From a virus (lineage: Duplodnaviria > Heunggongvirae > Uroviricota > Caudoviricetes): a stretch of DNA of 46,645 bases. The translations under genes and the position numbers were made by a program. This document shows positions 1-22,981 of the stretch, one piece after another (the first letter of the stretch is position 1; every line of letters starts with the position of its first letter). The stretch is from IMG/VR virus record IMGVR_UViG_3300031134_000612. One strand, given 5' to 3'. The notes under the pieces were generated by a model, which searched no databases, was not told where the DNA came from, and was given only the letters and a program-made list of their open reading frames with translations.

Positions 1-987
1 TTAAGCCGCAATCATATGTTTTAATACATTTTCGTATTTGTCATGATCCACATGATCAAGCTTTTTAATCAAACCAGACAAAAGCTTTTCTTTAAACTTG
101 CTCACATAATTATCAGAGTAAGCATTCAAAATTTCAAAATAGTTTTCTACTGCAAAATCACGAAAGAACCCTGAACACAATGTTGTACAAATACGTTGTA
201 AAGCTGCCTTATAAGCCAACTGTGGATCTTTGTAGTGACCTTTCCTGAGAATGATATAACGCTCCAATGCAATCACATAGGCTTCTTCCTGAACGCACCT
301 TACTTTGTATTCATGTGGGAGGTTATGAAACATATCTTTTTCACACCATGCTTTTGAAAAGTCTTTTTTCATCATTTCATAAACGGGACGTTCATAGTGC
401 TTAATCGCCTCATGAATGTCATCATGTTCAAACACATAGCCTACCACATTTTTTGAACGATCAAAGAAGTCTTCATTCGTTCTGTTCAAGGTGGGTAAAC
501 GTTTGTTGATACGTTCTTTTGTTTCTTGCAAACGAAGTTCATAATACAGTTGATAAGTTTTGACTTTTTCAACATCAATAACCGTTTTCAATAAAGAATA
601 GTCAGCAATACTTTTATCGTAATGAATCGGATAATGAATATGTGATTTCTTGGTCAAGTAAAGCACTTCACTGTTCACAAAATGAAAATCATTCCCAAAA
701 TTATCACTAAAGATACCGGCTGAAATACTGGTTTGATTGTCCAATAACCATTGAGAAGATCCCTTAAATGCAATTTCTATTTCGTAGTGCTGAATCTGTT
801 TATCACTTAATCGCAAAGAATATTTGGTAGATGATGTTGGAATCATTTTTGTAATAAATGGCTGATTCTTTGAGATGAAAGCAGTAAAATCATCCAGAGA
901 CATTACAACATCAATGTCCGATTTGTTAAATCGGGCAAGGTTGTTGTTTAAATTTAAATGTAAGGCTTTTGATCCCAAAACAATCAT
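1..987 (-). CDS. Putative Pol-beta-superfamily nucleotidyltransferase-like phage protein (328 aa)
   Basis: N-terminal hG-S...D-I-D motif (VLGSKAL...SDIDVV); the C-terminal HDDIHE...EEAYVIALER block resembles a widespread phage family. Confidence 0.55.
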   Translation of the reverse strand: MIVLGSKALHLNLNNNLARFNKSDIDVVMSLDDFTAFISKNQPFITKMIPTSSTKYSLRLSDKQIQHYEIEIAFKGSSQWLLDNQTSISAGIFSDNFGNDFHFVNSEVLYLTKKSHIHYPIHYDKSIADYSLLKTVIDVEKVKTYQLYYELRLQETKERINKRLPTLNRTNEDFFDRSKNVVGYVFEHDDIHEAIKHYERPVYEMMKKDFSKAWCEKDMFHNLPHEYKVRCVQEEAYVIALERYIILRKGHYKDPQLAYKAALQRICTTLCSGFFRDFAVENYFEILNAYSDNYVSKFKEKLLSGLIKKLDHVDHDKYENVLKHMIAA

Positions 988-20955: not shown

Positions 20956-21008
20956 TGGTGGGCAGCGGTTAACCATCATTACGACATAATGACAGCTCCA
21001 TACTTCCC
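20956..21008 (-). ncRNA. 53-nt tRNA-like mini-RNA (acceptor-like stem, one hairpin, ACCA end)
   Basis: GGGAAGT...GCTGCCC-ACCA (6 of 7 pairs) enclosing TCATTA/TAATGA hairpin; no D or T arm. Confidence 0.4.
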
Positions 21009-21237: not shown

Positions 21238-21327
21238 TGGTGGACGCCCAAGGATTCGAACCTCACGCCAACCGACCTGTCTTATTAAGGCGTCGCTTTT
21301 ACAGAGCGATGACAAGGAAAGGCGTCC
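21238..21327 (-). tRNA. Atypical D-armless tRNA-Tyr(GUA)-like RNA with enlarged variable region
   Basis: Perfect acceptor GGACGCC/GGCGTCC-ACCA, anticodon arm TCGCT-CTGTAAA-AGCGA, T-loop TTCGAAT; only 11 nt where the D arm should be. Confidence 0.7.
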
Positions 21328-21666: not shown

Positions 21667-21722
21667 ATTTGTATTACTAAGAAAGAGTTTTTCGTTTTGC
21701 TTCTCAACTCTTCATGTTTAAC

Positions 21723-21751
21723 ATTCTATCAACTTCTTTCGTCCTTGTCAA
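21723..21751 (-). promoter_or_regulatory. Near-consensus sigma70 promoter directly upstream of the tRNA array
   Basis: TTGACA-17 nt-TAGAAT with TG-n extended -10 and A/T-tract UP-element-like sequence upstream. Confidence 0.8.
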
Positions 21752-21788
21752 CAACTATTTTAAATTATTTTCAATTATTTTGCTTTTA

Positions 21789-21801
21789 AATCAATAACTT
21801 A
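21789..21801 (+). promoter_or_regulatory. IHF-consensus site
   Basis: AATCAATAACTTA matches WATCAANNNNTTR. Confidence 0.5.
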
Positions 21802-21841
21802 CATTATTTTAGGTTGAACTTAGCCCTGCCACTATGGACAT

Positions 21842-21874
21842 AAAAAAACCCTTCGAAGGTGGCCTTCAAAGGGT
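21842..21874 (-). terminator. Attenuator terminator hairpin
   Basis: ACCCTTTGAAGG-CCA-CCTTCGAAGGGT (12 bp, one G-U) followed by a 7-T tract. Confidence 0.85.
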
Positions 21875-21956
21875 CTGAGATAATTACTATCCAAGAATTC
21901 GAGGCCATAACTGACCTCTACTCTGGTCAGTTAACTAGAATATGATGAATAATAAT
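21860..21956 (-). promoter_or_regulatory. Alternative RNA structures of a putative transcription attenuator
   Basis: Antiterminator: TGGCCTCGAA (21907-21898) pairs with TTTGAAGGCCA (21870-21860). Competing structure: TAACTGACC/GGTCAGTTA hairpin, extended by the Tyr-codon tract ATTATTATTC pairing with GGATAGTAAT. Confidence 0.65.
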
Positions 21957-21981
21957 AGGATACAGCGAATGTAGGTTTCAT
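21931..21981 (-). CDS. Putative Tyr/Ser-sensing leader peptide MKPTFAVSYYYSSYSS
   Basis: ATG AAA CCT ACA TTC GCT GTA TCC TAT TAT TAT TCA TCA TAT TCT AGT TAA; SD GGAG at 21994-21991. Confidence 0.75.
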   Translation of the reverse strand: MKPTFAVSYYYSSYSS

Positions 21982-22015
21982 TTTGTATTTCTCCAAAAAG
22001 TAAATAATAGTAACC

Positions 22016-22044
22016 ATTATAACAGCCCGCTCAAAAAAATTCAA
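22016..22044 (-). promoter_or_regulatory. Sigma70 promoter of the leader transcript
   Basis: TTGAAT-17 nt-TATAAT with TGT extended -10; overlaps a CCGCTTGA/TTGAGCGG inverted repeat. Confidence 0.7.
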
Positions 22045-22057
22045 GCGGTATGTTGGT

Positions 22058-22981
22058 TTATTTAAAATTGTTTCGCGTTGGATCGTTAGCTGCAGCTTCA
22101 ATTTCTTTAAACTGAGTGCTGTTGAGTTTTTCTCGGAAAATGTCATCAAGCGTTGCATTATAGCTTAAAGGCTTTAATGCTGTAATCACTCGTTGAGTGC
22201 AACTATCAACACAACGAACTTTCCAGAAATAAGCATTTTCAAAATCGTTTATTTCGAGGTAGGCGGATACTATATCAAAAGCTACATTCTTATTTTTAGG
22301 ATACAGTTTTTTGTAGTATTCAACAGCTTTGGCTGTATTTTTAGGATAGATGAATCCTTTTCTATATTGATAACCATACAATAGAATAAGATCTTCATCA
22401 ATCGGCTCACCAATAGATAAGTTTTCTGCCAGTGTTTTAAAATCTTCTGCATATTGAATTTGAAGCTTATCTACCTGAGCCATCAGCGTTAGATCATCTT
22501 CAAAATAAGGCTTCTTAGCTTCATAGAGTTCAATAAATGCTTTTTTGTTGCCAGTCTTTAATGAAAGGTCTAAATAATGAAATAAGTCAGTTAACGCTTC
22601 TTTCTTTTTAGGTAAGGTGCCAACGTAGTCGTAACTGCCATAATATTGAGCATTGCCAAAAGGTTCAGTTAATGTCGCTTTCACTAAAAATTTGTTTTGT
22701 TTAATAATAAAAGTCTTGTCTGGAATTTTATAAACAATGGGTTCTCGATTAGCATCCGCTCCATAATAAGCTTTAACCAATAGAGCGTAGGCATCATAAG
22801 GATCTTTTTGTTGTTTCGCTTCTTTAAGTGTATTACCTAAAACACCATCAAAATAATCAGTGGCCTTTACAACATCAGCCCTTCCCAAAATTTTACTGGG
22901 ATCTACTTTTGGTGCAGAATCACCACAACCCGCCAAAAGAGCTAACAGTGCAGCTCCCAATACATACTTCATATATCGCAT
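22058..22981 (-). CDS. Lipoprotein with Sel1/TPR-like helical repeat (307 aa)
   Basis: Lipobox LLAGC; YGYQYRKG...KNTAKAVEYYKK resembles a Sel1 repeat. Confidence 0.7.
   Translation of the reverse strand: MRYMKYVLGAALLALLAGCGDSAPKVDPSKILGRADVVKATDYFDGVLGNTLKEAKQQKDPYDAYALLVKAYYGADANREPIVYKIPDKTFIIKQNKFLVKATLTEPFGNAQYYGSYDYVGTLPKKKEALTDLFHYLDLSLKTGNKKAFIELYEAKKPYFEDDLTLMAQVDKLQIQYAEDFKTLAENLSIGEPIDEDLILLYGYQYRKGFIYPKNTAKAVEYYKKLYPKNKNVAFDIVSAYLEINDFENAYFWKVRCVDSCTQRVITALKPLSYNATLDDIFREKLNSTQFKEIEAAANDPTRNNFK

Follow-up and report, generated by a model that had tools for sequence, protein, structure and literature searches.

Why would a short open reading frame (ORF) ending in nine consecutive Ser and Tyr codons lie upstream of an array that holds only tRNA-Ser and tRNA-Tyr genes? 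The question is raised by a locus on the minus strand of the virus record IMGVR_UViG_3300031134_000612 (Caudoviricetes; the whole stretch analyzed, 46,645 nucleotides, is referred to as the window), for which a prediction made from the sequence alone (the original prediction) had proposed a leader-peptide attenuator acting on the tRNA genes. Based on the conservation of the promoter, the ORF and the leader RNA across 14 relatives, and on the matching between leader codons and tRNA blocks in the unrelated phage LR756502.1, this proposal was supported, and the locus is probably a bivalent (Tyr and Ser) leader-peptide, ribosome-mediated transcription attenuator ahead of tRNA genes. No published description of leader-peptide attenuation controlling tRNA genes was found in literature searches, consistent with the earlier statement that none had been described. 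Bacterial tRNA genes are taught as being under growth rate and stringent response control and not under control of their own decoding performance; a leader that gauges the speed of codon reading and feeds back on the matching tRNA genes would, if true, put a classic mechanism to a new purpose, and would bear on why phages carry tRNAs and when these are needed.

The promoter P1, the GGAG sequence and the 16-codon ORF with its nine final Ser/Tyr codons were found at the minus-strand coordinates originally given for them. The terminator with its U7 tract was present as well, the tool counting 14 pairs (21876-21846) where 12 bp had been read. The parts of the locus, in the direction of transcription, were as follows.

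22044-22016, minus strand: promoter P1, TTGAAT-17-TGtTATAAT, extended -10, score 10/12.
near 22011-22008, minus strand: predicted transcription start of P1.
22011-21982, minus strand: 5' untranslated region (5' UTR), with the Shine-Dalgarno (SD) sequence GGAG at 21994-21991, 9 nt ahead of the ATG at 21981.
21981-21931, minus strand: leader ORF MKPTFAVSYYYSSYSS, 16 codons plus the stop codon TAA at 21933-21931.
21960-21934, minus strand: Ser/Tyr run, leader codons 8-16, nine consecutive codons.
21956-21883, minus strand: predicted anti-antiterminator, the Tyr-codon tract (21956-21946) with 21893-21883, 11 bp, 2 G-U.
21933-21908, minus strand: hairpin P3, segment 1:2 of the switch, 9 bp, beginning within the stop codon, -12.2 kcal/mol.
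21918-21901, minus strand: fourth hairpin GAGGUCA/UGGCCUC, segment 2:3, -10.9 kcal/mol.
21907-21860, minus strand: predicted antiterminator, UGGCCUCGAA with UUUG-AGGCCA (5' arm and loop of the terminator), -16.5 kcal/mol.
21876-21846 (stem) and 21848-21842 (U7), minus strand: intrinsic terminator, 14 bp, CCA loop, -19.3 kcal/mol.
21841-21752, minus strand: post-terminator spacer, an A/T-rich UP-like tract before P2.
21751-21723, minus strand: promoter P2, TTGACA-17-TGaTAGAAT, 11/12 matches, 3' of the terminator.
21666-20864, minus strand: tRNA array, in the order Ser(UGA), Tyr(GUA), Tyr, a tRNA-Tyr-like RNA, Ser, Tyr, a mini-RNA, Ser.
20826-20806, minus strand: terminator closing the tRNA transcription unit.

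The distance between GGAG and ATG was 2-9 nt for genes within the window (5-9 in most). In the predicted antiterminator, the main pairing, denoted UGGCCUCGAA/UUUGAAGGCCA, encloses an inner hairpin (UCU-GGAUA/UAUCU-AGA), while in the anti-antiterminator AUUC/GAAU and AG/CU pairs surround P3, the whole domain reaching -23.0 kcal/mol. ARAGORN and Rfam agreed on six tRNAs in the array, three Ser(UGA) and three Tyr(GUA), in line with the claim that these are the sole downstream genes. Two gaps of the array, at 21238-21327 (the tRNA-Tyr-like RNA) and 20956-21008 (the mini-RNA, which ends in CCA), were called by neither program; the tRNA-Tyr-like RNA is also kept in one relative (L013:835-925). Upstream of the leader, a gene at 22981-22058 encodes a 307-aa protein, and no terminator was found between the two, so its transcripts enter the leader too.

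Conservation was examined in 14 loci with readable downstream sequence, whose homologues of the 307-aa neighbour ranged from 98% to 48% identity; they derived from contigs carrying such homologues, from one metagenome match (L013) and from profile-search matches, and most contigs ended inside the tRNA repeats. The -10 hexamer of P1 was invariant and the -35 was invariant bar one base in L013, yet the spacer between them, always 17 nt long, was only 47-94% identical (47-65% against the most distant lineage). Hexamers kept while the spacer sequence drifts are the signature of a working promoter. GGAG and ATG were kept in all relatives within a 5' UTR that was 62-94% identical (62-71% in the most distant lineage) and contained indels. 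Moreover, the leader frame and its stop codon survived indels of +6 and -3 nt, all in frame, resulting in three ORF versions (MKPTFAVSYYYSSYSS, MKPTFTVSYYYSSYSS and MKPTFKFSSSYYYSYSR; ends ..AVSYYYSSYSS, ..TVSYYYSSYSS and ..KFSSSYYYSYSR), each with 5 Ser and 4 Tyr codons, so that the expected conservation of the leader codon bias was observed. Codons 1-5 were kept apart from one synonymous change, and contigs from further runs showed the synonymous changes TTC>TTT and GCT>GCC with the Ser/Tyr codons unchanged. A 75-aa ORF (22158-21931) that ends in the leader was considered and rejected: its start falls within the upstream gene, and the part that precedes the leader ATG is broken by stops in relatives, which makes the short ORF the conserved unit.

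Downstream of the ORF, the 91 nt from the stop codon to the U-tract were 94-98% identical, on par with the tRNAs (94-96% against the most distant lineage, with 95% for the terminator and 99% for tRNA-Ser1, which was 94-100% identical overall). Among distant lineages, the upstream gene was approximately 58-62% identical (58-60% against the most distant one) and the spacers 47-77%; the post-terminator spacer, at 74-93% (74-77% in the most distant lineage), fell below the leader RNA, and P2 was 86-97% identical, L014 keeping both hexamers with a different spacer. Hairpin P3 varied at a single loop base and a single near-terminal pair and was otherwise invariant, and a GA->AG change in the 3' arm of the terminator preserved U-G and U-A pairs. 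Altogether six substitutions were found in the leader RNA, four of them structurally neutral (4/6 vs. 27% expected, p = 0.05) and two at near-terminal pairs. The relatives carried the same tRNA species in their arrays, Ser and Tyr. As a separate observation, on the 520-kb contig L013 (1145-1337, minus strand) the first tRNA-Ser has the anticodon AGA instead of UGA and is followed by an extra tRNA-Ser(GCU), and the Ser/Tyr run of the leader opens with AGU.

The minimum free energy (MFE) structure of the whole leader (-47.2 kcal/mol, z = -4.2, equalled in 0/200 shuffles) included the terminator and also a helix in which the Tyr tract and GGAUAGUAAU pair, enclosing the 9-bp hairpin; this pairing belonged to the whole-leader MFE for ORF versions A and C. 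The three alternative structures originally described do exist, the antiterminator (-16.5 vs. -19.3 kcal/mol for the terminator) being the MFE from the point where the RNA reaches 21860. Compared with duplex shuffles, two pairings were stronger than expected by chance: that of the Tyr tract (p = 0.006-0.02) and the fourth hairpin (p = 0.02). A Ser/Tyr run of at least 9 was found in 0/200 Markov shuffles of the window (longest, 7), and the other long run in the window (10) lies antisense to a tract that codes for acidic residues. Four helices compete for the 91 nt between 21933 and 21843, and 80 of these nt take part in one or more of them; this accounts for the near-invariance of the leader RNA.

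Partition functions were computed with a 30-nt mask in place of the ribosome. For RNA extending to 21862, the probability of the antiterminator was 0.01 without a ribosome, climbed to 0.75-0.96 when any of codons 9-12 occupied the A site, and was 0.16 or less with the ribosome at codons 14 to stop; in the latter range (codons 14-17) the fourth hairpin reached a probability of at least 0.83. In Rfam searches, the best sub-threshold matches were the trpB motif (30.9 bits vs. a gathering threshold of 59) and His_leader (RF00514; 29.6 vs. 49), followed by Phe_leader (16.6 vs. 55) and PyrR, a likeness that is one of architecture with attenuator-type leaders and not of family membership.

Taken as an attenuator, the locus would work as follows. 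Transcripts from P1, together with read-through from the upstream operon, would carry the 16-codon ORF as a test sequence. With no ribosome on the leader, the Tyr tract would pair with 21893-21883 and AUUC/GAAU would close over P3, UGGCCUCGAA would be occupied, and the terminator would form, ending transcription at approximately 21842. A ribosome that reaches the stop codon would melt the 5' arm of P3, and the freed GAGGUCA would take UGGCCUC, again leaving the terminator to form; the fourth hairpin, which would sequester the 5' arm of the antiterminator once P3 is melted, is needed to account for termination in this state. A shortage of charged tRNA-Tyr or tRNA-Ser would stall the ribosome while codons 9-13 (Y Y Y S S) occupy its A site; it would cover the Tyr tract and leave P3 intact, and UGGCCUCGAA would then be free to take the 5' arm and loop of the terminator. 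RNA polymerase would continue past P2 and transcribe the Ser(UGA)/Tyr(GUA) array, and the tRNA products would relieve the stall, closing a negative feedback on the capacity to decode UAU and UCA. Three elements of this scheme are inferred: that the leader ORF is translated, that the helices are selected kinetically, and the physiological signal to which the switch would respond.

Regarding that trigger, the leader is written in the preferred codons of the element, UAU (36.7 per thousand) and UCA (23.0 per thousand) being its preferred Tyr and Ser codons and Tyr making up 5.1% of residues. Given this heavy use of UAU and UCA, simple demand is as plausible a trigger as defence. A link to tRNA-cleaving defences, which the original prediction had drawn, is possible, and nothing at the locus ties it to such a system. 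Bacterial Schlafen nucleases were also considered as a trigger and dropped, the paper examined naming no Ser or Tyr target.

Since all relatives of the locus carry Ser and Tyr tRNAs, the switching of leader codons with array anticodons was examined in an unrelated phage. LR756502.1 is an uncultured huge phage (642 kb, unannotated record) with 50 tRNA matches distributed in several blocks. Leaders were defined as the ORF with its stop codon 23-37 nt before the terminator stem, a rule that gave a unique ORF in every case. Between approximately 373 and 424 kb (L022-L025), all seven terminators located directly before tRNA blocks (7/7) followed a short ORF matched to its block:

tRNA Gln x4: leader MTTSFQQQQQQQINRTD, with seven consecutive Gln (QQQQQQQ).
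tRNA Arg/Ser/Arg: leader ..TSSRSRSSKS..
tRNA Phe/His/Phe: leader ..KHKHFSK..F..H.F..F.
tRNA Glu/Tyr: leader ..IETIGYTGYEGAYSE..
tRNA Ile/Gly/Gly/Gly/Ala: leader ..ISVGVIAIGAGSV..
tRNA Asn/Leu/Val/Ile/Thr: leader ..NLNMNLNTLTVVNNTL..
tRNA Pro/Asp: leader ..VVVDQDQPD..

When every leader was scored against every block, the true pairing was the single best of 5040 permutations, and it was the best of 40320 when the leader and array of the window were added; the codon switching that had been proposed as a check was thus observed in each of the seven blocks. The two LR756502.1 leaders that were folded were strongly structured (z = -5.8 and -5.2). These leaders share with the locus of the window the order of short ORF, terminator 23-37 nt past the stop codon and tRNAs, and an ORF rich in the amino acids of its block; they differ in that their sequences are unrelated and in that a second promoter intervenes in the window. 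In four of the seven blocks the terminator lay 9-20 nt before the first tRNA, a gap that leaves no space for an internal promoter, so that in those blocks the switch would be a complete gate. The matching supports what may be a general mechanism, built there on sequences unrelated to those of the window, and the presence of the same logic in an unrelated public phage suggests a widespread, unannotated feature.

Two further features were noted in the same region of LR756502.1. A mini-ORF, MKTKRKYKR (L022:2799-2828; 9 codons, four of them Lys), lies directly before three tRNA-Lys and is followed by a hairpin without a U-tract, and may be a variant of the codon-matched leader lacking a classical terminator. 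In addition, a 239-aa ORF between tRNA blocks (L022:3466-4185) has HIGN and KMSKS motifs and resembles a class I (Trp/Tyr-type) aminoacyl-tRNA synthetase, though one of very small size.

Several results weigh against attenuation as the function of the locus in the window. The second promoter announced by the original prediction was found and is conserved, so that a near-consensus P2 stands between the terminator and the tRNAs; lying behind the terminator, it implies that the switch modulates the array and cannot gate it, as had been anticipated. With its A/T-rich upstream tract, P2 looks like a strong constitutive promoter that would give a basal supply, and the attenuator is not the sole control, and possibly not the main control, of the tRNAs. 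The complementarity of the antiterminator taken alone was no better than that of duplex shuffles (p = 0.20). At only two nt more than the length considered above (RNA to 21860), equilibrium favoured the antiterminator in every ribosome state; the states expected from folding with the codons blocked were therefore recovered at 21862 and lost at 21860. Because the three states occur only within a narrow transcript window, the choice between helices must be kinetic, and we infer that the attenuator would depend on folding kinetics, as classical attenuators do. Almost no covariation was found, the leader RNA offering six substitutions only, so that of the conservation originally expected the codon bias was seen, with hardly any covariation in the stems; some other constraint, for instance binding of a protein or a function of the RNA in trans, could also account for the near-invariance. 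Under standard wobble, the anticodon of tRNA-Ser(UGA) does not decode AGU and is a poor match for UCC, which concerns 2/5 of the Ser codons of the leader. Finally, contigs from RNA libraries span the leader and some cross the terminator; they carry neither ends nor strand, and DNA carry-over is possible. Part of the stretch was contained in six runs recorded as RNA and in others only guessed to be RNA, in all cases as contigs. One of these, a 151-nt contig from a size-fractionated metatranscriptome run (21804-21954), covers the leader core, runs 38 nt past the U-tract and is the deepest among the contigs placed from its run; transcript ends are not readable from it.

Among the alternatives to attenuation, the one that survives best, and which we still regard as unlikely, is that P1 and the terminator delimit an independent small RNA gene of approximately 165 nt, trans-acting or protein-binding, in which the ORF is incidental or has a dual function and P2 alone drives the tRNAs. 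P1 and a strong terminator do flank a compact and strongly folded RNA (z = -4.2 to -6.1), near-invariance of the primary sequence is expected more of RNAs that act in trans or bind a protein than of cis switches, P2 is a separate promoter for the tRNAs, and the complementarity of the antiterminator does not reach significance on its own. A small RNA, however, leaves unexplained why the SD, ATG, frame and stop codon are kept through in-frame indels with 5 Ser and 4 Tyr codons constant, and why the leader codons match the sole two tRNA species downstream. Nor does it account for the layout of ORF, terminator and tRNAs recurring seven times with switched codons in LR756502.1, four of these blocks being too tightly spaced to hold a second promoter, and none of the Rfam small RNA families matched the leader.

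It is less likely still that the 16-17-residue peptide is itself the product (regulatory, toxic, or the precursor of a modified peptide) and that the downstream RNA is its 3' UTR and terminator. The absence of any synonymous variation in the Ser/Tyr codons, though such variation is present in codons 5-6, indicates that the RNA or the codons themselves are constrained, and not the encoded amino acid. Moreover, the putative 3' UTR is better conserved than the peptide in its variable middle part, Pfam revealed neither a modifying enzyme nor a partner gene beside it, and the match of its codons to the array would be a coincidence; conservation of the ORF, the SD and the N-terminal MKPTF would be expected of a peptide product as well.

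A third possibility is an ordinary operon-end terminator followed by P2 as the true tRNA promoter, with P1, the mini-ORF and the pairings arising by chance in an AT-rich, low-complexity spacer. It draws on the 307-aa gene (stop at 22058), which has no terminator before the leader, so that 21876-21842 ends its operon, and on the simple-repeat-like character of (TAT)3(TCA)2, another Ser/Tyr run of 10 having arisen accidentally in the window. Chance features, however, would not stay 94-100% identical beside spacers at 47-77%, P1 would not keep its hexamers around a variable spacer, and no shuffle run reached 9, so that we consider this explanation very improbable. Weakest of all, and hardly credible, is a ribosome-independent, T-box-like sensor binding tRNA-Tyr or tRNA-Ser directly, with the UAU tract as specifier and UGG reading the NCCA end, and thereby selecting terminator or antiterminator: the extreme sequence conservation and an antiterminator 5' arm that opens with UGG, its partner being the CCA of the terminator loop, would suit it, but no T-box or other riboswitch model matched 21680-22080 even at E = 10 (Rfam), and such a sensor needs no conserved SD, ATG or reading frame.

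Leader-peptide attenuation is a textbook mechanism that includes multivalent leaders (thr, with Thr and Ile; ilvGMEDA, with Ile, Leu and Val) as well as trpL, hisL and pheL, and in pheST of Escherichia coli a leader (pheM) regulates a synthetase through the supply of charged tRNA. The helix energies of the trp leader are similar to those predicted here. An attenuator at the locus would share with the enterobacterial multivalent ones the promoter, the short SD-led ORF with 3'-proximal regulatory codons, the mutually exclusive hairpins and the intrinsic terminator. It would differ from them in five interacting segments instead of four, in the second promoter past the terminator, in its giant phage-like carrier, and in its targets, since enterobacterial attenuators regulate biosynthetic enzymes whereas tRNAs would here restore decoding capacity rather than amino-acid supply. 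With pheST it would have in common a cognate-codon leader controlling a component of the translation apparatus in response to charged tRNA, while in pheST the target is a synthetase, a single amino acid is sensed and the location is chromosomal. T-boxes likewise couple the state of a specific tRNA to the choice between terminator and antiterminator before translation-related genes, but they read the tRNA directly without a ribosome, whereas here no T-box match was found and an ORF is conserved instead.

Concerning the supply of tRNAs by phages, T5 tRNA-Tyr rescues from retron-Eco7 PtuAB, which cleaves tRNA-Tyr, T1/T7 tRNA-Lys act against PrrC170, and a strong promoter drives the phage tRNA-Tyr (PMC11555353). 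The locus resembles that system in its phage-supplied tRNA-Tyr and strong promoter, P2 being near-consensus; no sensing or feedback is described there, while here the leader would make part of the supply conditional. If attenuation is true, the leader codons would state the limiting decoding step of the phage, whether this arises from codon-usage mismatch or from host defences that cleave tRNAs. Much more tentatively, and with the balance against it, large phages of unrelated lineages could generally use codon-matched leaders to sense the tRNA pool. The locus would then be the Tyr/Ser unit of a wider self-regulated translation module, an inducible counter to host nucleases that deplete the tRNAs with a long variable arm (Tyr and Ser), P2 giving the basal supply and P1 read-through an emergency dose.

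The distribution of the leader was searched beyond the 14 relatives. In GenBank phages no leader homologue was found, the only matches being to tRNAs and promoter-like sequences, and no leader relatives were found in viral contigs (protein scan and DNA patterns) or in genome contigs (DNA patterns). A profile search with the neighbour protein returned only more copies with an identical, invariant leader, or non-syntenic paralogues. In two metagenome runs, contigs sharing 21783-21851 (terminator 3' arm, U-tract and spacer) ran upstream into different terminator hairpins, and these are probably diverged homologues or paralogous units.

The remaining observations concern the surroundings of the locus. 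The window has approximately 33% G+C, and a Pfam match was absent for most of its ORFs. After the tRNA array, one lineage carries a TnpB/Cas12f-like gene (OrfB_IS605; L009:7231-8664 and L010:4071-5504), and the counterpart position in the window is occupied by a PD-(D/E)XK nuclease and a metallophosphoesterase. On an ENA scaffold of 1,691,479 bp (L016), the 307-aa neighbour has a distant homologue that does not adjoin tRNAs, which adds to the evidence that elements of this group attain megabase size.

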